The notes beneath the pieces are model-generated. The model was not told the origin of the DNA. It did not search any database and saw only the letters and a program-made list of their open reading frames with translations. A stretch of DNA of 32,150 nt. Source: Peduovirus P24C9. Shown here piece after piece: positions 1-32,150 of this stretch (position 1 is its first letter; each line of letters begins with the position of its first letter). Made by a program: the position numbers and the translations under genes. The stretch lies in the sequence record NC_049388.1. One strand, 5' to 3'.

Positions 1-142
1 TGCGCGCTGGCGGTGGTGCTGATTTTATTTTTTCAGCGTCTGAGCGCGTCGTGACGGCGCTTAGTCTGCCCGTTGAGGCGTTGGTGTGTCTGCGGGGTGT
101 TTTGTGCGGTGGTGAGCGTGTGAGGGCGTGATGACGGGGTGT

Positions 143-169: not shown

Positions 170-1204
170 TCAGCCGTTGTCAGTGTCCAGTGAGTAGTTT
201 TTAAAGTGGATGACCTCCTGACCGAGCCAGCCGTTTATTTCCCGAATCCTGTCCTGTAACGGGATAAGCTCATTGCGGACAAAGACCTTTGCCACTTTCT
301 CAATATCACCCAGCGACCCGACGTTCTCCGGCTTGCCGCCCATCAACTGAAAGGGGATGCGGTGCGCGTCCAGCAGGTCAGCGGCGCTGGCTTTTTTGAT
401 ATTAAAAAAATCGTCCTTCGTCGCCACTTCACTGAGGGGGATAATTTTAATGCCGTCGGCTTTCCCCTGCGGGGCATAGAGAAACAGATTTTTAAAGTTA
501 TTGCGGCCTTTCGACTTAACCATGTTTTCGCGAAGCATTTCGATATCGTTGCGATCCTGCACGGCATCGGTGACGTACATGATGTATCCGGCATGTGCGC
601 CATTTTCGTAATACTTGCGGCGGAACAGCGTGGCCGACTCATTCAGCCAGGCAGAGTTAAGGGCGCTGAGATATTCCGGCAGGCCGTACAGCTCCTGATT
701 AATATCCGGCTCCAGCAGGTGAAACACGGAGCCGGGCGCGAAAGGTGTCGGCTCATGGAAGGACGGCACCCACCAGTAAACATCCTCTTCCACGCCACGG
801 CGGGTATATTTTGCCGGTGAGGTTTCCAGTCTGATGACCTTACCGGTGGTGCTGTAACGCTTTTCCAGAAACGCATTACCGAACACCAGAAAATCCAGCA
901 CAAAGCGGCTGAAATCCTGCTGGGAAAGCCACGGATGCGGGATAAATGTCGAGGCCAGAATATTACGTTTGACGTAAATCGGTGAGCTGTGATGCACGGC
1001 AGCACGCAGGCTTTTTGCCAGACCGGTAAAGCTGACTGGCGGCTCATACCATCTGCCGTTACTGATGCACTCGACGTAATCCAGAATGTCACGGCGGTCG
1101 AGTACCGGCACCGGCTCACCAAAGGTGAACGCCTCCATTTTCGGGGCGCTGGCGGTCATTGTTTTTGCTGCAGGTTGCGGTGTTTTCCCTTTTTTCTTGC
1201 TCAT
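170..1204 (-). CDS. Q: Portal protein
   Basis: 344 aa ORF at the P2 Q position next to the cos end; length and sequence match my recollection of P2 gpQ; start shares ATGA with the P stop. Confidence 0.9.
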   Translation of the reverse strand: MSKKKGKTPQPAAKTMTASAPKMEAFTFGEPVPVLDRRDILDYVECISNGRWYEPPVSFTGLAKSLRAAVHHSSPIYVKRNILASTFIPHPWLSQQDFSRFVLDFLVFGNAFLEKRYSTTGKVIRLETSPAKYTRRGVEEDVYWWVPSFHEPTPFAPGSVFHLLEPDINQELYGLPEYLSALNSAWLNESATLFRRKYYENGAHAGYIMYVTDAVQDRNDIEMLRENMVKSKGRNNFKNLFLYAPQGKADGIKIIPLSEVATKDDFFNIKKASAADLLDAHRIPFQLMGGKPENVGSLGDIEKVAKVFVRNELIPLQDRIREINGWLGQEVIHFKNYSLDTDNG

Positions 1205-2976
1205 CAGTAAAACTCCAGAATGGTGGATGTCAGCGGGGTGCTGATACCGGCGGTGAGTGGCTCATTTAACAGGGCGTGCATGGTCGCCCAGGCGAGGTCG
1301 GCGTGGCTGGCTTCCTCGCTGCGACTGGCCTCATAGGTGGCGCTGCGTCCGCTGCTGGTCATGGTCTTTCGGATAGCCATAAACGAGCTGGTGATGTCGG
1401 TGGCGCTGACGTCATATTCCAGACAGCCACGGCGGATAACGTCTTTTGCCTTGAGCACCATTGCGGTTTTCATTTCCGGTGTGTAGCGGATATCGCGCGC
1501 GGCGGGATAGAACGAGCGCACGAGCTGGAACACGCCGACACCGAGGCCGGTGGCATCAATACCGATGTATTCGACGTTGTATTTTTCGGTGAGTTTGCGG
1601 ATGGATTCCGCCTGAGTGGCAAAGTCCATGCCTTTCCACTGGTGACGCTCAAGTATTCTGAATTTGCCACCGGCCACCACCGGTGGTGCCAGCACCACGC
1701 ATCCGGCGCTGTCGCCACGGTGTGACGGGTCGTAACCAATCCATACCGGGCGGGAGCCGAACGGATTGGCGGCAAACGGCGCATAGTCTTCCCATTCTTC
1801 CAGCGTGTCGACCATGCAGCGTTGCAGCTCCTCGAACGGGAACACCGACGCCTTGTCGTCAACAAATTCACACATGAACAGGTTTTTAAAATCGTCGGCG
1901 CTGTTTTCGCGTTTGAGCTGTTCAATGTCGAACAGCGTGCAGCCGCCTTTCAGGGCGTCCTCAATGGTGACAATCTGCCGCCACTGGCCGTCCGCACAGA
2001 GAAGCCCACCGGCAAGGGCGTTATGACTGACGTCGATTTCCACGCGTTCGGCGGCGCTGGCGCGTCCCCGGTTGAACAGTTCACCTGACCAGAACGGGTA
2101 GGCGTCGTGCGCCAGCGTGGACGGGGTGGAGAAATAGGTCGAGCGCAGGTGACTCTGTGAGGCCATACCTGATGCCACCTTACGCAGTACCTGAAAATTC
2201 GGGATCCAGAAAATCTCATCGACGTACAGGTCGCCGTTATGGCTCTGTGCGGTGTTGGAGTTGGTGCCGAGAAAAATCAGTTTTGCACCGTTATTGCCCA
2301 GGACAATCGGGTCACCGGTCAGGTCAACGTCAACCAGCCGGGCAAAGGCAATGATGTATTCGCGGAACACATACGCCTGCGTTTTACTGGCCGACAGAAA
2401 AATCTGGTTATGACCGGTTTTCAGGGCGCGCAGCAGCGCCTCGCGGGAAAAATAAAACGTCGCGCCAATCTGGCGGGATTTCAGGATATCGCGGATGCGG
2501 TGCTCAAGCCCGGCGCGATACCAGTGCAACTGATAGTCGAAAGACTGCTCAAAGAAAATCTGCTCCAGCTTTTCGATGGCCTCGTCACTGAAAAAATTCT
2601 TTTTCGGTTTGCGCCGCCCGCTTTTGTTGCGGTTAGCGACGTTCGGATTAAGGTCTGCCTCGCTGCCGGTCTGGCTGTAACGATTTACCCGTGCCAGTCG
2701 TTCAATCTGGCGTCCCAGCAGGTCAATTTCCTTGAAGTCACCGCCGGTTTTCTGCGGTTTGATGATGAGCTGGGTCAGCCGCGCTTCCAGGCTCATTTCG
2801 ACACGGCTGATGGGGGCAACGTTGTCCCAGCCGTCGCGCTGTTTCCAGCTCTGCACTGTCGGGCGTTTCATCTGCAACATGGCGGCAATCTGCGGCACGG
2901 AAAACCCCTGCCAGTACAGCAGCGCCGCCTGACGACGCGGGTCGTGTAAAAGAGTGGTGTCTGTGGTGATGGTCAT
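1204..2976 (-). CDS. P: Terminase large (ATPase) subunit
   Basis: ORF track gives 600 aa from 3006; I place the start at the internal Met (MTITTDTTLLHDP..., 2976), giving 590 aa as in P2 gpP; divergent from O. Confidence 0.85.
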   Translation of the reverse strand: MTITTDTTLLHDPRRQAALLYWQGFSVPQIAAMLQMKRPTVQSWKQRDGWDNVAPISRVEMSLEARLTQLIIKPQKTGGDFKEIDLLGRQIERLARVNRYSQTGSEADLNPNVANRNKSGRRKPKKNFFSDEAIEKLEQIFFEQSFDYQLHWYRAGLEHRIRDILKSRQIGATFYFSREALLRALKTGHNQIFLSASKTQAYVFREYIIAFARLVDVDLTGDPIVLGNNGAKLIFLGTNSNTAQSHNGDLYVDEIFWIPNFQVLRKVASGMASQSHLRSTYFSTPSTLAHDAYPFWSGELFNRGRASAAERVEIDVSHNALAGGLLCADGQWRQIVTIEDALKGGCTLFDIEQLKRENSADDFKNLFMCEFVDDKASVFPFEELQRCMVDTLEEWEDYAPFAANPFGSRPVWIGYDPSHRGDSAGCVVLAPPVVAGGKFRILERHQWKGMDFATQAESIRKLTEKYNVEYIGIDATGLGVGVFQLVRSFYPAARDIRYTPEMKTAMVLKAKDVIRRGCLEYDVSATDITSSFMAIRKTMTSSGRSATYEASRSEEASHADLAWATMHALLNEPLTAGISTPLTSTILEFY

Positions 2977-19070: not shown

Positions 19071-21510
19071 CAATGTAAAATTACAGGTATTGCTCAGGGC
19101 TGTTGACCAGGCATCCCGCCCGTTTAAATCCATCCGCACAGCGAGCAAGTCGCTGTCGGGGGATATCCGGGAAACACAAAAATCACTGCGCGAGCTGAAC
19201 GGTCACGCATCCCGTATTGAGGGATTTCGCAAGACCAGTGCGCAGCTCGCCGTGACTGGTCATGCACTTGAAAAGGCACGGCAGGAAGCCGAAGCCCTTG
19301 CCACACAGTTTAAAAACACCGAACGTCCAACCCGTGCTCAGGCGAAAGTGCTGGAATCCGCAAAGCGAGCGGCGGAGGACTTACAGGCGAAATATAACCG
19401 CCTGACGGATTCCGTTAAACGCCAGCAGCGGGAACTGGCCGCTGTGGGAATTAATACCCGCAATCTTGCACATGATGAGCAGGGACTGAAAAACCGTATC
19501 AGTGAAACCACCGCACAGCTTAACCGTCAGCGCGACGCGCTGGCGCGTGTCAGTGCGCAACAGGCAAAACTTAACGCAGTCAAACAGCGTTATCAGGCCG
19601 GAAAGGAACTGGCCGGAAATATGGCCTCAGTAGGCGCTGCCGGTGTGGGGATTGCGGCGGCGGGAACGATGGCCGGAGTTAAGTTGCTGATGCCCGGTTA
19701 TGAGTTTGCGCAGAAAAACTCAGAATTGCAGGCCGTGCTCGGAGTGGCAAAAGACTCCGCCGAAATGACCGCACTACGCAAACAGGCGCGCCAGCTCGGC
19801 GACAATACCGCCGCCTCGGCGGATGATGCGGCCGGTGCACAGATAATCATCGCGAAAGCGGGTGGGGATGCTGCGGCTATTCAGGCGGCAACGCCGGTCA
19901 CGCTGAATATGGCACTGGCGAATCAGCGGTCGATGGAAGAAAACGCGCAACTGTTGCTGGGGACTAAGGCATCCTTTCAACTGTCAAATGATGATGTCAG
20001 CCATGTGGGCGACGTGTTGTCAGCAACGATGAATAAGTCGGCGGCTGATTTTCAGGGACTCAGTGATGCACTGACTTACCTCGGTCCGGTTGCGAGGACG
20101 GCAGGTGTAAGTCTTGAGCAGGCAGCGGCCATGACAGGTGTGCTGCATGACAATAACATCAGGGGGTCAATGGCGGGTACGGGTAGTAGTGCCGTTGTCA
20201 CCCGATTACAGGCTCCGACAGGGAAAGCATGGGAAGCACTAAAAGAGCTTGGCGTTAAAACCTCGGACAAAAAGGGAAATATGCGTCCGTTGTTCACCAT
20301 TCTGAAAGAGATTCAGGTCAGCTTTGATAAACACAAGCTGGGAACGTCTCAGAAGGGGGAATACCTTAAAACCATTTTTGGTGAGGAAGCCCTGAAATCA
20401 GCGAACGTTTTACTGGCAGCGGCTGCAAGCGGAAAACTGGATAAGCTGACCGCCACGCTGAAAGCCTCGGACGGTAAAACGGAAGAGCTGGTTAAAATCA
20501 TGCAGGACAACCTCGGCGGTGACTTTAAGGAGTTTCAGTCCGCTTATGAGGCGGTGGGGACTGACCTGTTTGACCAGCAGGAAGGCGCACTGCGTAATCT
20601 CACGCAGACGGCCACAAAGTATGTGTTAAAACTCGACGGCTGGATCCAGAAAAACAAATCACTGGCGTCAACCATCGGCATCATTGTCGGTGGTGCACTG
20701 GCGCTGACTGGTGTCATCGGTGCCATTGGCCTCGTAGCCTGGCCGGTTATCACCGGCATCAATGCCATTATCGCGGCAGCAGGCGCAATGGGGGCAATCT
20801 TCACGACGGTTGGCAGTGCTGTTATGACGGCCATCGGGGCGATTAGCTGGCCGGTTGTGGCCGTGGTGGCTGCAATTGTCGCCGGGGCGTTGCTTATCCG
20901 TAAATACTGGGAGCCTGTCAGCGCATTCTTTGGCGGTGTGGTGGAAGGGCTGAAAGCGGCATTTGCGCCGGTGGGGGAACTGTTCGCGCCACTTAAGCCG
21001 GTGTTTGACTGGCTGGGTGAAAAGTTACAGGCCGCGTGGCAGTGGTTTAAAAACCTGATTGCCCCCGTCAAAGCCACCCAGGACACCCTGAACCGTTGCC
21101 GTGATACGGGCGTCATGTTCGGGCAGGCACTGGCTGACGCGCTGATGCTGCCGCTTAATGCGTTCAACAAACTGCGCAGCGGCATTGACTGGGTACTGGA
21201 AAAACTCGGTGTTATCAACAAAGAGTCAGACACACTTGACCAGACCGCCGCCAGAACTCATGCCGCCACGTATGGCACCGGTGGTTATATTCCGGCGACC
21301 AGCTCTTATGCAGGCTATCAGGCTTATCAGCCGGTCACGGTACCGGCTGGTCGCTCTTATGTGGACCAGAGTAAAAACGAATATCACATCAGCCTGACGG
21401 GTGGTACTGCGCCGGGGACACAGCTTGACCGCCAGTTACAGGATGCGCTCGAAAAATACGAGCGGGATAAACGTGCGCGCGCCCGTGCCAGCATGATGCA
21501 TGACGGTTAA
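19063..21510 (+). CDS. T: Tail tape measure protein
   Basis: 815 aa with a helical N-terminal half and a Gly/Ala-rich hydrophobic segment, in the P2 T position. Confidence 0.9.
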   Translation: MSNNVKLQVLLRAVDQASRPFKSIRTASKSLSGDIRETQKSLRELNGHASRIEGFRKTSAQLAVTGHALEKARQEAEALATQFKNTERPTRAQAKVLESAKRAAEDLQAKYNRLTDSVKRQQRELAAVGINTRNLAHDEQGLKNRISETTAQLNRQRDALARVSAQQAKLNAVKQRYQAGKELAGNMASVGAAGVGIAAAGTMAGVKLLMPGYEFAQKNSELQAVLGVAKDSAEMTALRKQARQLGDNTAASADDAAGAQIIIAKAGGDAAAIQAATPVTLNMALANQRSMEENAQLLLGTKASFQLSNDDVSHVGDVLSATMNKSAADFQGLSDALTYLGPVARTAGVSLEQAAAMTGVLHDNNIRGSMAGTGSSAVVTRLQAPTGKAWEALKELGVKTSDKKGNMRPLFTILKEIQVSFDKHKLGTSQKGEYLKTIFGEEALKSANVLLAAAASGKLDKLTATLKASDGKTEELVKIMQDNLGGDFKEFQSAYEAVGTDLFDQQEGALRNLTQTATKYVLKLDGWIQKNKSLASTIGIIVGGALALTGVIGAIGLVAWPVITGINAIIAAAGAMGAIFTTVGSAVMTAIGAISWPVVAVVAAIVAGALLIRKYWEPVSAFFGGVVEGLKAAFAPVGELFAPLKPVFDWLGEKLQAAWQWFKNLIAPVKATQDTLNRCRDTGVMFGQALADALMLPLNAFNKLRSGIDWVLEKLGVINKESDTLDQTAARTHAATYGTGGYIPATSSYAGYQAYQPVTVPAGRSYVDQSKNEYHISLTGGTAPGTQLDRQLQDALEKYERDKRARARASMMHDG

Positions 21511-23248: not shown

Positions 23249-23467
23249 ATGTTTCATTGTCCTTTATGCCAGCATGCCGCACATGCGCGTACAAGCCGCT
23301 ATATCACTGACACGACAAAAGAGCGTTATCACCAGTGTCAGAACGTGAATTGCAGCGCCACGTTCATCACTTATGAGTCGGTACAGCGATACATCGTGAA
23401 GCCGGGAGAAGTCCACGCCGTAAGACCGCACCCGTTGCCGTCAGGGCAGCAAATTATGTGGATGTAA
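23249..23467 (+). CDS. ogr: Ogr-type zinc-finger late transcription activator
   Basis: 72 aa from internal ATG 23249 (MFHCPLCQHAAHARTSRY...CQNVNC...); Cys-x2-Cys ... Cys-x4-Cys zinc finger; sequence is what I recall for P2 Ogr; ORF track extends upstream to 23186. Confidence 0.9.
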   Translation: MFHCPLCQHAAHARTSRYITDTTKERYHQCQNVNCSATFITYESVQRYIVKPGEVHAVRPHPLPSGQQIMWM

Positions 23468-23478
23468 TTACAAACAGG

Positions 23479-23506
23479 AAGCCCCTCAGTCGAGGGGCTT
23501 TTTTGT
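23479..23506 (+). terminator. Rho-independent terminator after ogr
   Basis: Hairpin gcccctc-agtc-gaggggc followed by TTTTTTGT. Confidence 0.75.
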
Positions 23507-23527
23507 CAATGTGGTCAATGTGTGGAC
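23505..23527 (+). repeat. Tandem direct repeats (tcaatgtg...TGTGGAC), putative Int arm-type sites on the left att arm
   Basis: gtcaatgtggtcaatgtgtggac read directly; the TGTGGAC motif recurs on the other side of the core at 23684-23703. Confidence 0.5.
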
Positions 23528-23568
23528 GTGACCAGAAATAAATCCTTTTATTTCATTGTATTACGCGT

Positions 23569-23595
23569 AAAAAATAAGCCCGTGTAAGGGAGATT
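23569..23595. other. Putative attP core
   Basis: aaaaaataagcccgtgtaagggagatt lies between ogr and the 3' end of int and matches the P2 attP core as I recall it; flanked by TGTGGAC repeats. Confidence 0.6.
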
Positions 23596-23674
23596 TAGGG
23601 TGTCACCAGTAGGGGCTTTCAACGGTACAATGCGGGTTTGAGCGGCATAAATTACCACTGAAAGCCCTTAAACG

Positions 23675-24688
23675 TTACTCTACTGTGGACACTGTGTGGA
23701 CACTCTCGGCCTCAGTACCACCTCTTAGCGGATTAAGAGAAATGGCGTCCTGAAGGTACTCTGGCGCAAAATGAGCGTAAACCATAGTTTGCTCAATCCG
23801 CGTGTGACCTAGTATCCGTTGTAGCGTGATAATACTTCCTCCATTAATCATGAAATGAGTGGCAAAGCTGTGCCTTAGTGCATGTGTGGCTTGCCCCATT
23901 GGCAAATCCGGTTTTATTGCTTTCATTGTTCGTCTGAAGCGAGGGTAATCAGCATCAGGGAATAAAAAACCTCGTTTGTTATCCGCGATCATTTTGGCAA
24001 CAGCCTCTGAGATCGGGACGGTGCGTGGTTTGTTTGTTTTCGTTTTAACAAACGTGACGCGGTTATGGATGATATTTTCTGCTTTCAAACGAGCTGCTTC
24101 TCCCCAACGTGCTCCAGTACTCAGGCAAAGAATCGCAATCTTTTTGTTGTCGCCGTCAAGAGCAGCAAGCAGTAAGGCAATTTCTTCCTGCGTGAGATAG
24201 CCTGTGTCTGGTTTTTCCTCCTTAAGCCTTTTTGTCCCTCTGATAGGGTGCTCACCAAAGAATAACTCCGCTTCAATCAGGGCTGTAAACATGCCGCTAA
24301 TACATGTTAAATCACGATTGATACTCGAAGGTTTAATACCCTGACTTCTTCGGGTGGCGCAGTACTGGCTGATAAGCGATTTCGTAATTTGAAATGCGCA
24401 TGGGTCATTCGTTATTTTTGTGAAGATTTCAATTTTTCCAAGATTAGATTTCCCATGCTCTTCGTGTTTACCCTTTAAATCCCACCAGATCTGTGTCAGC
24501 TCCGACAGACGTCGCTTGTCTGTTGGTTTTGATAGCCATTCTTTATTGTGGTGGTTGTACAACGTGTATTTCTCGAAAGCGACAGCTTCGCTTTTCTTAT
24601 CAAACTTCCTACGGATGCGTTTTCCATTACGTCCAGTAGGGCGGATGTCCACTTCATATCGACCATCATCGAGTTTTTTGATTGCCAT
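23675..24688 (-). CDS. int: Tyrosine integrase
   Basis: 337 aa; C-terminal catalytic signature HALRHSFATH ... GHTRIEQTMVYAH (His-x-x-Arg plus catalytic Tyr); P2 int position and orientation. Confidence 0.9.
   Translation of the reverse strand: MAIKKLDDGRYEVDIRPTGRNGKRIRRKFDKKSEAVAFEKYTLYNHHNKEWLSKPTDKRRLSELTQIWWDLKGKHEEHGKSNLGKIEIFTKITNDPCAFQITKSLISQYCATRRSQGIKPSSINRDLTCISGMFTALIEAELFFGEHPIRGTKRLKEEKPDTGYLTQEEIALLLAALDGDNKKIAILCLSTGARWGEAARLKAENIIHNRVTFVKTKTNKPRTVPISEAVAKMIADNKRGFLFPDADYPRFRRTMKAIKPDLPMGQATHALRHSFATHFMINGGSIITLQRILGHTRIEQTMVYAHFAPEYLQDAISLNPLRGGTEAESVHTVSTVE
23684..23703 (+). repeat. Tandem direct repeats TGTGGACAC x2, putative Int arm-type sites on the right att arm
   Basis: ctgtggacactgtgtggacac read directly; same motif and orientation as 23521-23527; lies inside the last codons of int. 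Confidence 0.5.
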
Positions 24689-24803
24689 CAGAAAACCCTC
24701 CGAGTGGTGTGTTTTTTTGCGACTACTAATCGCTTTTTTCGTGGTGGCTGAAATTTAGCCACCAATAGTAGGCACTTGTGATGAATATATTCACGATGAA
24801 TTG

Positions 24804-25103
24804 TTAACCAGTCTTTTGACCGGAGTGGGGCGACGTTGTTTCGTTTTGCCCAAAGTGTGCGAGAGCGGGCGCAATTTGCCCGGACTCAGGAGCGATCTGA
24901 TTGGTCATGAACCATAAAGTGTATTTGGTGAATTGTGGGGTCTGCAGGATGTTCATCATGACATCTGTTGGAGGTGTTGAACGACCACTTTCATAGTAAC
25001 TCAGCGTGCCATACGGAACCCCTGTTAAATCAGCAAGTTGTTGTCTGCTCAAATACTCTGATTTTCGCATTAAGACTATCTTCTCGCTTATCGTGTTTGA
25101 CAT
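24804..25103 (-). CDS. C: Immunity repressor C
   Basis: 99 aa with a helix-turn-helix segment (QQLADLTGVPYGTLSYYESG); divergent from cox; matches P2 C length. Confidence 0.85.
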   Translation of the reverse strand: MSNTISEKIVLMRKSEYLSRQQLADLTGVPYGTLSYYESGRSTPPTDVMMNILQTPQFTKYTLWFMTNQIAPESGQIAPALAHFGQNETTSPHSGQKTG

Positions 25104-25217
25104 GGTGTTTAGATCTCAATAGTATTTAGTTTAGATGTAGATTGTTTAGTGCTTGGATGTGGGCACTAAAAGGCATTATAAGACATTAAACGCAATTCAT
25201 GAGGGCTAGAGGACGAC
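25104..25217. promoter_or_regulatory. C/cox divergent promoter-operator region
   Basis: 114 bp AT-rich gap between divergent C and cox starts, with clustered direct repeats TTTAGAT/TTTAGTT/GTAGATT/TTTAGTG at ~25108-25151. Confidence 0.6.
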
Positions 25218-25493
25218 ATGAGCAAGCAAGTAACACTCATGACTGATGCGATTCCTTATCAGGAGTTCGCAAAACTAATAGGAAAATCGACAGGAGCGGT
25301 TCGTCGGATGATCGATAAAGGAAAGCTGCCTGTAATTGATATGACCGATCCACAATCAGCTTCAGGTCGTGCAGGTGAATATTGGGTATACCTTCCGGCA
25401 TGGAATAACGGACTAAAACTGGCTTATGAAAGCCGACCTAAAGAGATTCGTGACGGCTGGTTGATGTGGTTAGGTCTCGGTGAACCACGTTAA
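25218..25493 (+). CDS. cox: Cox excisionase / transcriptional switch protein
   Basis: 91 aa, first gene of the early rightward operon, divergent from C; matches P2 Cox length. Confidence 0.85.
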   Translation: MSKQVTLMTDAIPYQEFAKLIGKSTGAVRRMIDKGKLPVIDMTDPQSASGRAGEYWVYLPAWNNGLKLAYESRPKEIRDGWLMWLGLGEPR

Positions 25494-25503
25494 GGAGAAC
25501 CGT

Positions 25504-25674
25504 ATGAATGAGCCTCGTTGTATTGCTCAGTTACTGCGTAACGAAAGCCCCAGGGCGATTGACTTCACCATCACCCACGGTAAGGGGCGTAAGGGAATCA
25601 TTATCCGCACCAAAAAACAGAGTCCGTTAAAAAAGGCTCTGACCTTTCTGAAAAGCCGGAGGGTATGGAAATGA
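25504..25674 (+). CDS. Small basic early protein (P2 orf78 position)
   Basis: 56 aa from ATG 25504 preceded by RBS taaggag; the ORF track start at 25480 is a GTG overlapping cox. Confidence 0.5.
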   Translation: MNEPRCIAQLLRNESPRAIDFTITHGKGRKGIIIRTKKQSPLKKALTFLKSRRVWK

Positions 25675-26171
25675 CAGTGATGACGCTCAATCTCGTTGAA
25701 AAACAGCCAGCAGCTATGCGCCGGATAATTGGTAAGCATCTTGCCGTTCCTCGCTGGCAGGATACATGTGATTATTATAATCAGATGATGGAGCGCGAAC
25801 GGCTAACAGTTTGCTTTCATGCGCAGTTAAAACAGCGTCACGCAACGATGCGTTTTGAAGAAATGAACGACGTCGAACGTGAACGACTGGTATGTGCAAT
25901 TGATGAATTGCGTGGGGCATTCTCAAAACGTCGTCAGGTCGGTGCAAGTGAGTATGCATATATTAGTTTTTTAACAGTCAGTCAGCGTCGTACTTTATTT
26001 ATGCATGCCGGATTGACTGAAAAAGAATTTAACCAGCCATACTGGCGAATTAATGAAGAGTCATGTTACTGGCGTGATGCTTTATTCCGTGCATTACGTG
26101 AATTATTCAGCCTGTTTGAGTATGCACCGACAATTCTGACGTCGGTAAAACCAGAGCAATATCTGCATTAA
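25665..26171 (+). CDS. B: Replication protein B (helicase-loader-like)
   Basis: 168 aa ORF at the P2 B position; start could be 25665 (MEM) or 25671 (MTVM). Confidence 0.75.
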   Translation: MEMTVMTLNLVEKQPAAMRRIIGKHLAVPRWQDTCDYYNQMMERERLTVCFHAQLKQRHATMRFEEMNDVERERLVCAIDELRGAFSKRRQVGASEYAYISFLTVSQRRTLFMHAGLTEKEFNQPYWRINEESCYWRDALFRALRELFSLFEYAPTILTSVKPEQYLH

Positions 26172-26234
26172 GTAATTAACCAGAGTTTTTAACGCACTTA
26201 ATCGTGCGGGGCTTCTTTTTGCCTGGAGAAAGTT

Positions 26235-26459
26235 ATGCATACAGTTTCTGAAAATCAGTGCGGTAAATACGCATTACTGCTGCAACAGGCCAGAACCGAA
26301 GCACAGGCCGACGCTGCGACGCGCTTTTCTTCTCATCTTGATGCCATGATTCGCCACATCACAAAGGCGGAGTTATCCCGCGTGGAGATAGTCGAGCTGC
26401 TCAGTCAGGAGTCGGAAAAATTTCACAATATCGGATTGTCTCGCGGGGAGGTGCTTTGA
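26235..26459 (+). CDS. Hypothetical early protein (P2 orf80 position)
   Basis: 74 aa ORF in the early operon between B and A; no recognisable motif. Confidence 0.5.
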
Positions 26460-26761
26460 TGTCCTGTTCTCGTTCAGTTGTATTACTGAATAACGCCTTA
26501 AAAATCGCCGTTATGAAAAATGGCGATTTGTCTCTTATTCAACTTGGTCTTGATAAAGAAAAACGCGAAATAACTGAGTCTGTTATCGCGATTTATCAGA
26601 ACGAATTAAACCTCCTGTCTGATGTGGTCAATTTGCTTGTTAAACGCGCTGTGTTTCACAAGCAAATCTCCTCCGTGGATGAACTGACGAAATTAACGAC
26701 AGAAATCGCCAGCTATTGCGCTGATGAATTTAAAAACCTTAACGACAAAAGGAACTGGTAA
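26456..26761 (+). CDS. Hypothetical early protein (P2 orf81 position)
   Basis: 101 aa ORF overlapping its neighbours' stop and start; no recognisable motif. Confidence 0.5.
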
Positions 26762-26985
26762 TGCCGGACAACGTAGATTTTATTCAGGCACAACAGGCTG
26801 AATTACTGGAGCGCCAGATTAACGCGGCAAGGGTAAAACATTGCGGTGCTTCTGCGATGGTTTGCGAAGAGTGTGACGCGCCAATACCTGCTGCCCGTCG
26901 TGCGGCTTATCCGTCAGCCACGCGTTGTGTTTCCTGTCAGTCAGTTTTTGAAGCAAAAAACAAACATTACCGGAGAACGGCATGA
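26761..26985 (+). CDS. DksA/TraR-type C4 zinc-finger protein (P2 orf82 position)
   Basis: 74 aa with two Cys pairs (CEECDAPIP ... CVSCQ), typical of TraR/DksA-family zinc fingers. Confidence 0.6.
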   Translation: MPDNVDFIQAQQAELLERQINAARVKHCGASAMVCEECDAPIPAARRAAYPSATRCVSCQSVFEAKNKHYRRTA

Positions 26986-27257
26986 GTATTCGTATTGAAA
27001 TTGGCGAACGTTATGTCGTTACCAGTGACAGCTTTCAGTTTATTCTCCACGAGAAAAAGAGAGCTGAAAGCGGTAAAAACGCCGGTCAGGAATGGCTGGC
27101 GGTGGTTGGTTATTACCCGAAATTAAGCCAGCTCGTTTCCGGCCTGATGCATCACGATATTCTGACCGGAAGCGCAAAGTCTTTTGCTGATTTAAACGCG
27201 CAGGTTGAGCAACTCAGCAAGCGTTGTTCAGAGGCTTTTGGCTCATATGGCCGTTAA
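26982..27257 (+). CDS. Hypothetical early protein (P2 orf83 position)
   Basis: 91 aa ORF overlapping the start of A. Confidence 0.5.
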   Translation: MSIRIEIGERYVVTSDSFQFILHEKKRAESGKNAGQEWLAVVGYYPKLSQLVSGLMHHDILTGSAKSFADLNAQVEQLSKRCSEAFGSYGR

Positions 27258-29502
27258 AGCCTCCGGGCGTTTTGTCCCTCCGTCAGCATTTGCCGCAGGC
27301 ACCGGTAAGACGTTTACCGGTGCTTATGCATGGAACGCGCCACGCGAGGCCGTCGGGCGCGAAAGACCCCTTACACGTGACGAGATGCGTCAGGTGCAAG
27401 GTGTTTTATCCACGATTAACCGCCTGCCTTACTTTTTGCGCTCGCTGTTTACTTCACGCTATGACTACATCCGGCGCAATAAAAGCCCGGTGCACGGGTT
27501 TTATTTCCTCACATCCACTTTTCAGCGTCGTTTATGGCCGCGCATTGAGCGTGTGAATCAGCGCCATGAAATGAACACCGACGCGTCGTTGCTGTTTCTG
27601 GCAGAGCGTGATCACTATGCGCGCCTGCCGGGAATGAATGACAAGGAGCTGAAAAAGTTTGCCGCCCGTATCTCATCGCAGCTTTTCATGATGTATGAGG
27701 AACTCAGCGATGCCTGGGTGGATGCGCATGGCGAAAAAGAATCACTGTTTACGGATGAGGCTCAGGATCACCTGTATGGTCATGTTGCTGGCGCTGCACG
27801 AGCTTTCAATATTTCCCCTCTCTACTGGAAAAAATACCGTAAAAGACAGATGACCACGAGGCAGGCATATTCTGCCATTGCCCGTCTGTTTAACGATGAG
27901 TGGTGGACTCATCAGCTTAAAGGCCAGCGTATGCGCTGGCATGAAGCGTTACTGATAGCTGTCGGGGAGGTCAATAAAGACCGTTCTCCTTATGCCAGTA
28001 AACACGCCATTCGTGATGTGCGTGCGCGCCGCCAGGCAAATCTGGAATTTCTTAAATCGTGTGACCTTGAAAACAGGGAAACCGGCGAGCGCATCGACCT
28101 TATCAGTAAGGTGATGGGCAGTATTTCTAATCCTGAAATTCGCCGGATGGAGCTGATGAACACCATTGCCGGTATTGAGCGTTACGCCGCTGCAGAGGGT
28201 GATGTGGGGATGTTTATCACGCTGACCGCGCCGTCAAAGTATCACCCGACACGTCAGGTAGGAAAAGGCGAAAGTAAAACCGTGCAGCTTAATCACGGCT
28301 GGAACGATGAGGCATTTAATCCAAAGGATGCGCAGCGTTATCTCTGCCGTATCTGGAGCCTGATGCGCACGGCATTCAAGGATAATGATTTACAGGTCTA
28401 CGGTTTGCGTGTCGTCGAGCCACACCACGACGGAACGCCGCACTGGCATATGATGCTTTTTTGTAATTCACGCCAGCGTAACCAGATTATCGAAATCATG
28501 CGTCGCTATGCGCTCAAAGAGGATGGCGACGAAAGAGGAGCCGCGCGAAACCGTTTTCAGGCAAAACACCTTAACCGGGGCGGTGCTGCGGGATATATCG
28601 CGAAATACATTTCAAAAAACATCGACGGCTATGCACTGGATGGTCAGCTCGATAACGACACCGGCAGGCCGCTGAAAGACACTGCAGCGGCTGTTACCGC
28701 ATGGGCGTCAACGTGGCGCATCCCGCAATTTAAAACGGTTGGCCTGCCGACAATGGGGGCTTACCGTGAACTACGCAAATTGCCGCGCGGCGTCAGCATT
28801 GCTGATGAGTTTGACGAGCGCGTCGAGGCTGCACGCGCCGCCGCAGACAGTGGTGATTTTGCGTTGTATATCAGCGCGCAGGGTGGGGCAAATGTCCCGC
28901 GCGATTGTCAGACTGTCAGAGTCGCCCGTAGCCCGTCGGATGAAGTTAACGAGTACGAGGAAGAAGTCGAGAGAGTGGTCGGCATTTACGCGCCGCATCT
29001 CGGCGCGCGTCATATTCATATCACCAGAACGACGGACTGGCGCATTGTGCCGAAAGTTCCGGTCGTTGAGCCTTTGACTTTAAAAAGCGGCATCGCCGCG
29101 CCTCGGAGTCCTGTCAATAACTGTGGAAAGCTCACCAGTGGTGATACTTCGTTACCGGCTCCCACACCTTCTGAACACGCCGCAGCAGTGCTTAATCTGG
29201 TTGATGACGGTGTTATCGAATGGAATGACCCGGAGGTCGTGAGGGTGCTCAGGGGCGCATTAAAACACGGCCTGAGAACACCAAATCGTCAGCAAAGAAA
29301 CGGAAGCCCGTTAAAACCACATGAAATTGCACCATCGGCCAGGCTGACCCGGCCGGAACGATTGCAAATTACCCGTATCCGCGTTGACCTTGCTCAGAAC
29401 GGTATCAGGCCTCAGCGATGGGAGCTTGAGGCGCTGGCGCGTGGGGCGATGGTGATTTATGATAATAAAAAATTCAAATATCCAGTGATTGATGAGTGGT
29501 AA
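27247..29502 (+). CDS. A: Replication initiation protein A (HUH rolling-circle endonuclease)
   Basis: Start placed at ATG 27247 (MAVKASGRF...); ORF track begins at 27205. Contains an HUH-like motif (PHWHMMLF) and a Tyr motif (GYIAKYISKN); P2 gpA-like size. Confidence 0.85.
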   Translation: MAVKASGRFVPPSAFAAGTGKTFTGAYAWNAPREAVGRERPLTRDEMRQVQGVLSTINRLPYFLRSLFTSRYDYIRRNKSPVHGFYFLTSTFQRRLWPRIERVNQRHEMNTDASLLFLAERDHYARLPGMNDKELKKFAARISSQLFMMYEELSDAWVDAHGEKESLFTDEAQDHLYGHVAGAARAFNISPLYWKKYRKRQMTTRQAYSAIARLFNDEWWTHQLKGQRMRWHEALLIAVGEVNKDRSPYASKHAIRDVRARRQANLEFLKSCDLENRETGERIDLISKVMGSISNPEIRRMELMNTIAGIERYAAAEGDVGMFITLTAPSKYHPTRQVGKGESKTVQLNHGWNDEAFNPKDAQRYLCRIWSLMRTAFKDNDLQVYGLRVVEPHHDGTPHWHMMLFCNSRQRNQIIEIMRRYALKEDGDERGAARNRFQAKHLNRGGAAGYIAKYISKNIDGYALDGQLDNDTGRPLKDTAAAVTAWASTWRIPQFKTVGLPTMGAYRELRKLPRGVSIADEFDERVEAARAAADSGDFALYISAQGGANVPRDCQTVRVARSPSDEVNEYEEEVERVVGIYAPHLGARHIHITRTTDWRIVPKVPVVEPLTLKSGIAAPRSPVNNCGKLTSGDTSLPAPTPSEHAAAVLNLVDDGVIEWNDPEVVRVLRGALKHGLRTPNRQQRNGSPLKPHEIAPSARLTRPERLQITRIRVDLAQNGIRPQRWELEALARGAMVIYDNKKFKYPVIDEW

Positions 29503-29631
29503 GGCTATTAAATTACGAATAAATACAGGTCTTATTGATGGATTGGGTAATAGTAAACTTTAAAAAATAATAATTGTAATGTTTTAAATTATAGTTAAAT
29601 TTCGCTTAATGACATTATCTTCTTAATATTT

Positions 29632-29661
29632 AAAGTGCCTCCCATTATTAGGGGGCACTTT
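29632..29661. terminator. Putative bidirectional terminator between convergent A and accessory operon
   Basis: Imperfect hairpin aaagtgcctccc-attatta-gggggcacttt in a very AT-rich gap, with A/T runs on both sides. Confidence 0.5.
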
Positions 29662-29677
29662 AAATTATGGGATTAAT

Positions 29678-30961
29678 TTATTGTGGCCAGTCCCAGTTAT
29701 CATATTGTTGAATTTTTTCTGATAACACTTGAGGTGCACTACCGTGAGTTACATTTTCAGCATAACCAATCGTACCGACATAGTTAATGTCATCAACATC
29801 AAGTGTATTGGCCTCCCATGGCCGTATCTTGCGAGTTGGTTCACAGATAGAAACGTCACGATTGATGGTTTTTAACCACGATATATTTATTACATTTGCG
29901 CCTGCAGCTTTTAGATACATTCTGGCTGTTTCATGAGCATTTCCTTCAGTGCAAAAATCATCAATAACTAATATTTTCTTACCTTTCAATTTAGGAGGGT
30001 TGGTATATCTTTCGCCGGTGATGAGGTTTTTAATAGGGGCAGGATTTAAATTAACGGTGTTTATTTGAGATGTGATGTTTACTTCTTGCTTAGCTATCCG
30101 AGCTTGCTGTGATTTAATAGCTGTTGTATGTCGTAAGAATAGATCTTTTAGATACTTTCCTTTGAATGAGACTGCTAAACCTTTTAGGTCATGCTCCATA
30201 ATGTTTGCTAGTTTATAAGGATCTTCAGCGTTATGTCCAACGTAGGTGGTTATAAAACTTGCTCCTTCACTTAAGCCAGAGAAATAAATGCTAGCACCAA
30301 GATATCTTATCCAAAAATCGGGGCTTCCAACCGATAGCTTTGCGAGGTCTCTTGCATTGGCTGAATACATTGTAAATTCAGGGACATATGTGCTAAATGG
30401 TGCTAAGGCGTAGTAGTGAACATCTTCATTAAAATGCCCTTGCCATCCCCACAACTGCTCTCTTAAGCAAAAGACATCAATAAATCTAGCGATTTCTTTG
30501 GGTTCTGAAAATTGAAAACCGTACTCAGTAACCGGTTCATACCAGGTCGCATTAATAAATAGGGTATTCCCGTTGGTAGCTGCTTGTAAGTCTTCCTGAG
30601 AACGCCCTACATAGATCATTTCGTTTCGTTTTAATTCTAACGCAGCCATGATGAAATCTATGGCCTTCCCTGTTTGTTTTGCTGGTATGTTGTTGTCGAG
30701 TTCACGGCAAAAGTGAATTGATTCTGGGAATTTCCTTTTTAGGTATTCGTCTAGTGTTACGATCCCGTCATGTGTTCTCACGTTTCTATTTTTATTTGTC
30801 AAGAAGATAACTTTAATCCCTTTTGATGACAAAAACGCAAACAACTTACGTAATTCAGAGTCGATTCTAGATTTTAGTTCCTGAGGTTGAGTGTTAGATG
30901 TTAATGGTAATACAACATCTGCGATTGAAAATATAACTGCCTTTAAATACATATTATTCAT
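29678..30961 (-). CDS. Phosphoribosyltransferase-domain protein, second gene of the accessory operon
   Basis: 427 aa; C-terminal PRTase-like motif KKILVIDDFCTEGNAHET; N-terminal half has degenerate HAD-like motifs (VIFSIADVV, IYVGRSQEDLQAATNGN); start overlaps the upstream gene by 8 nt; AT-rich. Confidence 0.7.
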   Translation of the reverse strand: MNNMYLKAVIFSIADVVLPLTSNTQPQELKSRIDSELRKLFAFLSSKGIKVIFLTNKNRNVRTHDGIVTLDEYLKRKFPESIHFCRELDNNIPAKQTGKAIDFIMAALELKRNEMIYVGRSQEDLQAATNGNTLFINATWYEPVTEYGFQFSEPKEIARFIDVFCLREQLWGWQGHFNEDVHYYALAPFSTYVPEFTMYSANARDLAKLSVGSPDFWIRYLGASIYFSGLSEGASFITTYVGHNAEDPYKLANIMEHDLKGLAVSFKGKYLKDLFLRHTTAIKSQQARIAKQEVNITSQINTVNLNPAPIKNLITGERYTNPPKLKGKKILVIDDFCTEGNAHETARMYLKAAGANVINISWLKTINRDVSICEPTRKIRPWEANTLDVDDINYVGTIGYAENVTHGSAPQVLSEKIQQYDNWDWPQ

Positions 30962-32003
30962 CTCCCAGAAGAGAAAGTTGCTGTGTTTTTACACCGGATG
31001 CTGATTTAATTAAGCTTTGCACGTCTTTAAAATCGGATAGTGGAATATTCATTATCGTAGCTGAGTACTCTGACAAGGCATGTTTAATCTCTTCTTGAGG
31101 TGTAGTTCCCCTAAGTAAAGGACAAAGTATCGCTCTTTTTAATTGAGCAGCATATCTCACAGTATGAGATGTCCCACTTTTTAGGCCCCATTCAACTGGG
31201 ATCAATACATCACTTAAAGCTGCTTGAATTCTATTTCTACGAACAAAGTTTTCCTGTGATGGTTTTTGGTTTGGTAAATACTCAGTAAGAATCAGTCCGC
31301 CATTATTTACAATATGGCCTCTCATCTCGCCACTATTTTTGGGATAATTTGAGTTTACGCCAGTACCTAACACAGCAATTGTCGGTATTTTAAATAACAG
31401 GGATGCTTCATGTGCAGATTGATCTATACCATATGCTAAACCGCTTACAGTTGAATAATCCGAATCTATAAATTGCGAGATTACTGCTTGAGTTAAATAA
31501 ATTCCAAGTGCGGTTGGGTTTCTGGTGCCGACAACTCCAACACACTTTTTATCTAGCAAGGATACATTGCCTTGAGCAAACAACCAGAAAGGCGGCTCAG
31601 ACAGGTCATTCAACTTGTCTGGATAGCTCGGAGAACCATGGTGGATGATTTTGTAACCACTATTATGATAATGTGTGAGTAATATTTTAGCCGTAGAAAT
31701 CATGCTGTCCCGAAAAACAGACCAATTGCCTTCATTCAAATAATAAGGTTGGCGATGAAGTTTTACTCCAAGTAGATACTCAAAGTTGGCTAATGTTTGG
31801 CTGGTAACAATGTCTCTAAATCTGATTCCCTTTTGAGCAACTTTATATAGAGTCCAATAACTAACGCCATGTATTTCTGATAGTGCCAACAAAGCGGCAC
31901 TTTCTGTGTTCCATCGAGCTGTTTCAATATCCGTCATAATGTTCGCCAAAATGGAAGATTTTTTATCGCTTTTATCATAGGTTTGTATAAAAGTGTAGCA
32001 CAT
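30954..32003 (-). CDS. DprA/Smf-like (SLOG-type Rossmann fold) protein, first gene of the accessory operon
   Basis: 349 aa; DprA-family motifs VGVVGTRNPTALG, SGLAYGIDQSAHEASL, TIAVLGTGVNSNYPKN, LTEY and FVRRNRIQAALSD...SGTSHTVRYAAQLKRAI; alternative start at MTDIETARW (31937); AT-rich. Confidence 0.75.
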   Translation of the reverse strand: MCYTFIQTYDKSDKKSSILANIMTDIETARWNTESAALLALSEIHGVSYWTLYKVAQKGIRFRDIVTSQTLANFEYLLGVKLHRQPYYLNEGNWSVFRDSMISTAKILLTHYHNSGYKIIHHGSPSYPDKLNDLSEPPFWLFAQGNVSLLDKKCVGVVGTRNPTALGIYLTQAVISQFIDSDYSTVSGLAYGIDQSAHEASLLFKIPTIAVLGTGVNSNYPKNSGEMRGHIVNNGGLILTEYLPNQKPSQENFVRRNRIQAALSDVLIPVEWGLKSGTSHTVRYAAQLKRAILCPLLRGTTPQEEIKHALSEYSATIMNIPLSDFKDVQSLIKSASGVKTQQLSLLGDE

Positions 32004-32110
32004 TAAACCAAGACTTTAGAGGGCATGTTCTTGCATCAAACTGCATGTAAAAAAACAAAAAATTAATGCACCTTAGGTCTTATCCAGTCAATCTCGAGTG
32101 TTCACATGCA
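32004..32110 (-). promoter_or_regulatory. Putative promoter region for the accessory operon
   Basis: AT-rich non-coding sequence just upstream of the DprA-like ORF on the minus strand; no -35/-10 pair confidently assigned. Confidence 0.3.
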
Positions 32111-32150
32111 TCTGCATTAAAACCGCCCCACGAAGCGGGCGGGCGAGGCG

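Follow-up and report, generated by a model that had tools for sequence, protein, structure and literature searches.

Organization of the ogr–attP–int Region

The sequence analyzed here is a stretch of 32,150 nucleotides from Peduovirus P24C9 (NC_049388.1), which is called the window below; all positions are those of the window unless another record is named. Read on the + strand, the region of interest runs from the end of ogr through a G+C-rich hairpin with a T run, the heptamers TGTGGTC and TGTGGAC, an A/T-rich stretch, a 27-mer, and about 88 bp of further sequence to two copies of TGTGGACA, which lie at the 3′ end of int. The features and the basis of each assignment are summarized in Table 1, in which occupancy of the protein-binding sites is annotation transferred from phage P2.

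Table 1. Features of the ogr–attP–int region and the cox gene in the window
Feature	Position	Strand	Basis
ogr, 72 aa, activator of late genes; final gene before attP on its P side	23249–23467	+	ORF; Pfam Ogr_Delta, E = 1.1e-21; P2 ogr 24036–24254
Rho-independent terminator of ogr and the F operon	23478–23501	+	P2 annotation 24265–24288
Int P arm	23506–23533	+	P2 protein_bind "Int, P arm" 24293–24320; TGTGGTC at 23510–23516 and TGTGGAC at 23521–23527, 11 bp apart
IHF binding region (predicted)	23537–23570	+	P2 protein_bind "IHF" 24324–24357
attP core, 27 bp	23569–23595	+	Exact match; P2 "attP" 24356–24382 and Int "attP core", at 23569–23595(6) of the window
Cox binding region (predicted)	23612–23685	+	P2 protein_bind "Cox" 24399–24472; identical to P2
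Int P′ arm	23683–23709	+	P2 protein_bind "Int, P′ arm" 24470–24496; TGTGGACA at 23684–23691 and 23695–23702, 11 bp apart
int, tyrosine integrase, 337 aa	23675–24688	−	ORF; Pfam Int_N and Phage_integrase
cox, excision directionality factor	25218–25493	+	ORF; Pfam Phage_Cox, E = 5.5e-48

The segment 23150–24750 (1,601 bp) aligned without gaps to positions 23937–25537 of the P2 genome (AF063097) at 98.6% identity, and to phage 10W at 100%. Window coordinates therefore equal P2 coordinates minus 787, with no insertions or deletions. Positions 23567–23760 were 100% identical to P2, and the 321 bp from 23440 to 23760 were 99% identical, with about eight substitutions: the differences fall at 23440, 23478, and 23508 and at six positions of the IHF region within 23556–23566, all to the left of the core. 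Compared with P2 attP (AF063097/NC_001895, 24293–24496), the core, the P′ arm, the Cox region, and the P-arm heptamers are the same, as is the order ogr, terminator, P arm, IHF region, core, Cox region, and P′ arm/int; only the substitutions just listed set the two apart.

The 27-mer AAAAAATAAGCCCGTGTAAGGGAGATT is present as a single copy in the window, and no match to it was obtained in 100 shuffles of the window. The first-pass annotation, which was made from the sequence without database searches, had placed the 27-bp att core of P2 at this position, and the match proved to be exact. The span that it gave for the whole site, 23505–23710, corresponds closely to the interval from the start of "Int P arm" to the end of "Int P′ arm" in the P2 record (23506–23709 of the window), and its assignment of the core and of the arm-type repeats matches the protein_bind annotation of AF063097 to the base. 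Exact copies of TGTGGAC were found on the + strand at 23521–23527, 23684–23690, and 23695–23701, and one further copy lies at 21360. The annotation had located the first two of these and the variant TGTGGTC correctly; the third had been placed 2 bp too high, at 23697–23703. Its description of same-orientation repeats bracketing the core also held, i.e., both pairs lie on the same strand, each with 11-bp spacing. Apart from this one coordinate slip, the observation is confirmed and its interpretation is supported: the feature is the real attP of P2 and its close relatives, correctly read, and the reference genome of P2 already carries its annotation.

A tyrosine integrase gene adjoins the site. 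Int was 99.7% identical to P2 Int in a tblastn search, and we take the solved structures 5c6k and 5dor to be essentially this protein. Its C-terminal end reads ...AESVHTVSTVE before the stop codon, and the right-hand pair of repeats occupies codons 330–335 of 337 (...S V H T V S T V E stop), as had been proposed when the pair was assigned to the last codons of int. Pfam returned no separate arm-domain match for Int residues 1–56. In the protein alignment, the N-terminal sequence MAIKKLDDGRYEVDIRP... was conserved across lineages. According to previous work, it is the N-terminal domain of Int that binds the arms, and the arm consensus of P2-type integrases is tgTGGaCa (PMC3448106); the direct repeats on the two flanks of the core, at 23510/23521 and 23684/23695, fit this consensus.

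When the IHF region was scanned with WATCAANNNNTTR, the best match was at 23551–23563, with two mismatches versus one in P2. The allele of the window, which differs from P2 at the six nucleotides within 23556–23566, is shared with the ogrK remnant of strain K-12 and with the prophage of strain APEC E19025, and thus occurs in an apparently complete prophage as well as in a remnant. We assume that IHF would bind this allele. The Cox region between the core and the P′ arm contains TGAAAGCC-type boxes in both orientations, at 23614–23621 (−) and 23659–23666 (+), and six cox boxes facing two ways have been described at attP (PMC3936717). On the left, a scan of the − strand, i.e., in the sense of int, gave a marginal terminator call, consisting of a hairpin at 23500–23479 followed by CCTGTTTGTA. 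Sub-threshold Rfam matches to Phe_leader, isrJ, and STnc100, which were driven by the ogr terminator hairpin, were rejected as chance.

Integration Site and Non-integrated State of the Window

To identify the bacterial counterpart of the core, as the first-pass annotation had suggested, we compared a 45-nt probe around the core with complete genomes of Escherichia coli. Matches were found in 5,421 of the 5,426 genomes, and the host gene is cyaR, which was located with Rfam, the RefSeq annotation at the attB matches being listed as "none." In strain CT29, the site is empty and lies between yegR and yegQ; here, on the − strand, the core makes up the final 27 nt of the gene for the sRNA cyaR, comprising the 3′ arm of its terminator and the U tail (Rfam CyaR_RyeE, 100.7 bits).

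Both types of recombinant junction were found in the lysogen APEC E19025, which carries a full prophage. The left junction reads yegR–core–P′–int, and the right junction, approximately 34.6 kb away, reads D–ogr–P arm–core–cyaR–trhP, with CyaR again scoring 100.7 bits. Integration therefore duplicates the core and leaves cyaR intact. In 43 IMG/VR prophage contigs, the core was likewise followed by the host B arm, and strain K-12 contains a remnant with the order D′–ogrK–P arm–core–cyaR. Yu, Bertani and Haggard-Ljungquist (Gene 1989) reportedly described the 27-nt core and locI, and Barreiro and Haggard-Ljungquist (J Bacteriol 1992) are said to have described the K-12 remnant. A P-arm-like relic, which still has one arm-type site, lies beside cyaR in nearly all E. 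coli, and it is conceivable, though doubtful, that this relic is the cause of the locus being a preferred P2 integration site. In a previous study, cyaR is listed among the insertion sites of P2-type phages in E. coli W, K-12, and B (PMC3032704, Table 2).

The window itself represents the free phage. Positions 1–25000 and 24700–32131 were 100% identical to Escherichia phage 10W (OM475433.1), a P2-like Peduovirus. The source field of the 10W record reads "Escherichia coli lysogens." The first base of the window directly follows the 19-nt P2 cosL, and the last lies 9 nt into cosR; the window is a phage genome in virion (cos-to-cos) order, without bacterial DNA. The claim that the element is not integrated at this site is borne out by these ends, by the phage origin of all of the DNA, and by an intact P arm–core–P′ arm, whereas prophages instead show host–core–P′ and P–core–cyaR.

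Comparison With Other P2-Like Integration Modules

We next compared the int 3′ ends of other P2-like phages, oriented like the window and drawn from a phage collection (Table 2). The Int identities were taken from one protein alignment, except that S164 and P37 lie outside it and their values come from a separate comparison.

Table 2. Int and P′ repeats in other P2-like integration modules
Phage	Int identity	P′ repeats	C-terminal end of Int before the stop codon
11W / S164	52% / 53%	GTCCATAA, two copies, with the stop codon inside the second	GMSIMRP
P88_4B11	50%	Inside the ORF	SVHAVSTGD
YenM_42.18	61%	Inside the ORF	GMSTNRPHL
HQ103 / P37 / FSL SP-004	51%	GTGTCCACATAGTGTCCACA, 15–17 nt past the stop codon	...LNPLKGGVTL

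These modules resemble that of the window in having two tandem arm-type sites of the same orientation on each flank of the core, with approximately 11-bp spacing and a shared GGAC, in having a P arm that adjoins the ogr terminator, and in their conserved Int N-terminal domain. However, their cores and core-binding domains are different, and their Int proteins are 50–61% identical. In the alignment of these proteins, the N-terminal ∼55 aa are highly conserved and the core-binding region diverges, a pattern that fits a common arm specificity combined with different cores. Up to position 23555, phage 11W does not differ from the window, but it has TTATGGAC in its P′ arm, and the P arm of the window is likewise conserved in S164 and in the K-12 remnant. 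The P arm is a shared module, combined with different core and int cassettes that have been swapped at a boundary 13 bp from the core.

The P′ sites were compared both among these lineages and among closer relatives. Conservation of Int ends at ...LNPLxGG, and the tail encoded by the repeats lies beyond that point. In the HQ103 type, unlike the window, the P′ sites are downstream of the int stop codon and not inside int. Since the repeats of HQ103, P37, and FSL SP-004 lie past the stop codon, overlap with the reading frame is dispensable; across the five phage-collection lineages in which it was assessed, this overlap is frequent rather than obligatory. For the closer relatives, we collected 66 loci from IMG/VR with Int 80–100% identical, mostly in prophage form, which yielded 27 distinct int 3′ ends. 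In these 27 ends, which represent close relatives only, both GTCCACA heptamers were invariant or nearly so, synonymous positions included, and the codons around and between them varied (TEAE, TDAQ, or VNTD before; VE, LE, or DG after). Invariant heptamers amid varying codons indicate that the sites are constrained as DNA; the P′ sites are thus under DNA-level constraint inside a coding region.

Alternative Explanations for the Repeats and the Locus

Two other accounts of the locus were weighed against the attP assignment. The TGTGGAC repeats could be a coincidence, arising by chance or driven by codons, and not protein-binding sites. Consistent with this, the right-hand pair lies within coding sequence, and the number of heptamers in the window (4) was not significant when compared with that expected by shuffling (4.1). 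We therefore replaced the count test, which was not significant, with a test of the tandem-pair arrangement. Tandem pairs spaced 10–12 bp apart, with no more than one mismatch over both copies, occurred 0.053 times per simulated window, and two same-strand pairs ≤ 250 bp apart occurred in none of 300 first-order Markov simulations. Since the count is at the level of chance, the weight of the repeats lies entirely in their arrangement and conservation, and these are difficult to reconcile with coincidence. Translation passes through the two right-hand copies in different frames (VH and ST), so a repeated peptide does not explain them; the heptamers are invariant at synonymous positions in the 27 distinct sequences; equivalent pairs surround different cores in 11W, HQ103, P88_4B11, and YenM_42.18; and the P2 record marks the repeats as Int binding sites. 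We regard coincidence as having a negligible probability, and the comparative data refute it for practical purposes. It is also very improbable that the region is attL or attR, at the boundary of a prophage with its host, or a degenerate relic such as the ogrK locus of K-12. The K-12 locus does have D′–ogrK–P arm–core beside cyaR, with a P side identical to that of the window, and the database relatives that were found through Int are mostly in prophage form. However, in the window the core is followed on the right by the P′ arm and int, not by the body of cyaR. An Rfam search of 23300–23900 returned no CyaR, as expected with only 27 nt of cyaR present, and the window is bounded by cos and consists entirely of phage DNA.

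A further reading concerns the placement of the P′ sites rather than their identity. The first-pass annotation had suggested that Int binding at these sites could couple recombination to int expression. In an extended form of this idea, the position of the sites at the 3′ end of int could serve regulation, such that Int bound to the DNA or to its own mRNA lowers Int synthesis and integration alters the 3′ untranslated region of int, in a manner similar to sib of phage lambda. This arrangement recurs: in four lineages (P2/10W, 11W/S164, P88_4B11, and YenM_42.18), the P′ repeats extend over the final codons of int. In addition, PMC11789052 cites a paper on the regulation of P2 int (Yu et al. 1994, J Virol 68:4220) as an example of a viral protein that is autoregulated by binding its own mRNA, which indicates that autoregulation of P2 Int is already in the literature. 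The int-sense RNA 23710–23470 folds unusually well in the attP state (z = −3.8); it runs into the ogr hairpin, which is also terminator-like on the − strand, and integration separates this hairpin from int. On the other hand, the terminator call on the − strand is marginal, the repeat-encoded tail lies past the last conserved residues of Int, and HQ103, P37, and FSL SP-004 have their repeats downstream of the int stop codon, with an Int that ends in ...LNPLKGGVTL. A regulatory purpose for the placement of the sites is therefore rather unlikely in our assessment. The geometry would allow a sib-like effect: the P′ sites and the changed 3′ untranslated region of int upon integration, in which the ogr hairpin and the P side are lost, might together provide a control of Int synthesis that depends on the integration state and acts by Int binding to the 3′ end of its gene or to its mRNA, as a counterpart of sib, but we consider this doubtful.

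We also asked whether int transcripts might end at a cyaR-type terminator located at the core. This was rejected for the phage of the window, since neither P2 nor 10W has the 5′ half of such a hairpin on the P′ side. A cyaR-type hairpin at the core is present in several relatives whose Int is 80–89% identical.

Proposed Mechanism and Comparison With Phages Lambda and 186

The attP assignment accounts for the locus: the window almost certainly carries the attP of a P2-type temperate phage in the non-integrated, virion-order form, working by the mechanism that is the textbook one for the family. The evidence seen here consists of the sequence identity to the annotated P2 sites, the attB and the two junctions of a prophage with its host, heptamers that are conserved among relatives, and ends that fall at cos. 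The model of protein binding, DNA bending, and directionality that follows is drawn from the P2 record and the literature. The N-terminal domain of a heterobivalent Int would bind the tandem TGTGGWC sites of the P arm (23510 and 23521) and the P′ arm (23684 and 23695), and its core-binding and catalytic domains would bind the 27-bp core. IHF is expected to bend the stretch that separates the P arm from the core, and Cox, bound on the other side of the core, before the P′ arm, would block integration and promote excision. Strands would be exchanged within the core, the partner being the identical 27-bp sequence with which the host cyaR ends, and the predicted products are yegR side–core–P′–int and ogr–P–core–cyaR, in which cyaR is rebuilt intact. 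The P′ sites in the last codons of int are most simply seen as a probable by-product of a compact module, with the int reading frame continuing through them past the conserved ...LNPLxGG end of the enzyme.

Many elements of this model have counterparts in lambda attP, which uses a heterobivalent Int, the arm sites P1, P2, and P′1–3, the host and phage factors IHF, Xis, and Fis, and sib retroregulation. In both systems, the tyrosine integrase is bivalent and links arm sites to core sites, DNA bending is due to IHF, the directionality factor has its sites on one side of the core, before the arm, and attP adjoins int, so that integration alters the sequence downstream of int. However, the arm and core sequences are unrelated, and lambda attP has two plus three arm sites, whereas a P2-type attP has two per arm. 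Furthermore, the P2-type Cox binds on the int-proximal P′ side and doubles as the repressor of the lytic switch, and, unlike that of lambda, the P2-type int is transcribed together with the repressor gene C from Pc (PMC3936717). The attP of coliphage 186 belongs to the same phage family as that of the window and shares the layout of the module and the direct-repeat arm sites on both flanks of the core; in contrast, its arm consensus is tgccGCCActt and not tgTGGaCa (PMC3448106).

These results leave the current view of P2 site-specific recombination unchanged. They show that the record is a free-phage genome and not a prophage, and the comparison makes a small addition, namely the DNA-level constraint on the P′ sites, the frequent yet dispensable overlap of these sites with int, and the P arm as a shared module. 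Their value lies mainly in correct annotation, i.e., of attP, of its protein-binding sites, and of the integration target, the 3′ end of cyaR, for phage 10W.

Exchange of core and int beside a common P arm

When the window was compared with phages 11W, D8, 12W, and P24E6b, the identity was 96–99.8% up to position 23555, at which point the similarity broke off within the IHF region, 13 bp to the left of the core. For D8, 12W, and P24E6b, the comparison extended up to this break; in 11W, the phage examined past it, a different core was found, together with an int of 52% identity. Because the sequences are nearly identical to the left of 23555 and the core and int differ in 11W, the P arm and the ogr terminator behave as a common module, to which interchangeable core-plus-int cassettes are joined. 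The IHF-region allele of the window differs from that of P2 at six positions and has one mismatch more to the IHF consensus than P2. This allele is identical to those of the K-12 ogrK remnant and the APEC E19025 prophage.

Locations of the features analyzed
Feature	Location	Strand	Description
Break in similarity to 11W	window 23555–23568; 11W region (L003) about 620–640		
IHF-region allele	window 23556–23566		
P arm region compared with B arm	window 23505–23568		
B arm, E. coli CT29	empty-site locus (L004) 2453–2500, left of core		likeness to P arm
B arm, APEC E19025	prophage junction locus (L006) about 2424–2500		likeness to P arm
int-sense RNA	window 23470–23710	-	predicted fold
Cox-box arms	window 23612–23628 and 23653–23669		oppositely oriented
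Two cargo genes	window 29678–32003	-	match to the ShosTA anti-phage defence system
Window start	window 1–20		
Window end	window 32132–32150		

A P arm homolog in the host

The host B arm, which flanks the cyaR core towards yegR, shares homology with the P arm of the phage. The sequence common to the two arms is TCGATGTGGTCAATG...ACCAG..., with the addition of ...TCCTTCTGTTTCATTGAATTACGCAT in APEC E19025. The B arm is carried by almost all complete E. coli genomes (5401/5426), and that of CT29 still has one intact arm-type site (TGTGGTC). The B arm has the appearance of a remnant: an ancient P2-like prophage seems to have been lost, leaving P arm-core-cyaR in place.

Cargo genes and ends of the record

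The matches of the two cargo genes were obtained with E = 4e-296 for ShosT and E = 2.2e-231 for ShosA, the latter containing a DprA-like DNA_processg_A domain. Both genes lie in the variable region that follows gene A, where homology to P2 stops at about 29500. ShosTA is already known as a system, and its site is already known as a P2 hotspot. The start of the window directly follows the 19-nt cos overhang sequence and its end reaches 9 nt into that sequence; therefore, about 10 nt of cos are absent between the end and the start. The GenBank record of Escherichia phage 10W (OM475433.1) exceeds the window in length by 129 nt. The last 19 nt of the window lie outside the main alignment to that record, and a second matching place was reported in that alignment.

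RNA structure and variant cores

The int-sense RNA across attP has a predicted fold of -73.2 kcal/mol, much more stable than its shuffles (z = -3.8), the main contributor being a long hairpin formed by the Cox-box arms. The hairpin of the ogr terminator also has a terminator-like score, a marginal one, on the - strand. Among relatives with an Int 80–93% identical (IMG/VR loci L065, L067, L074, L077, and L080), variant cores (...CCCTTACGCAGGCTTATTTTTT) were found about 60–110 nt downstream of the int stop. Here, a complementary arm precedes the variant core on the P' side, giving a complete hairpin and U tract on the int-sense strand, whereas P2 and 10W are without this 5' hairpin arm. These cores probably follow the sequence of the cyaR terminator in other enterobacterial hosts.
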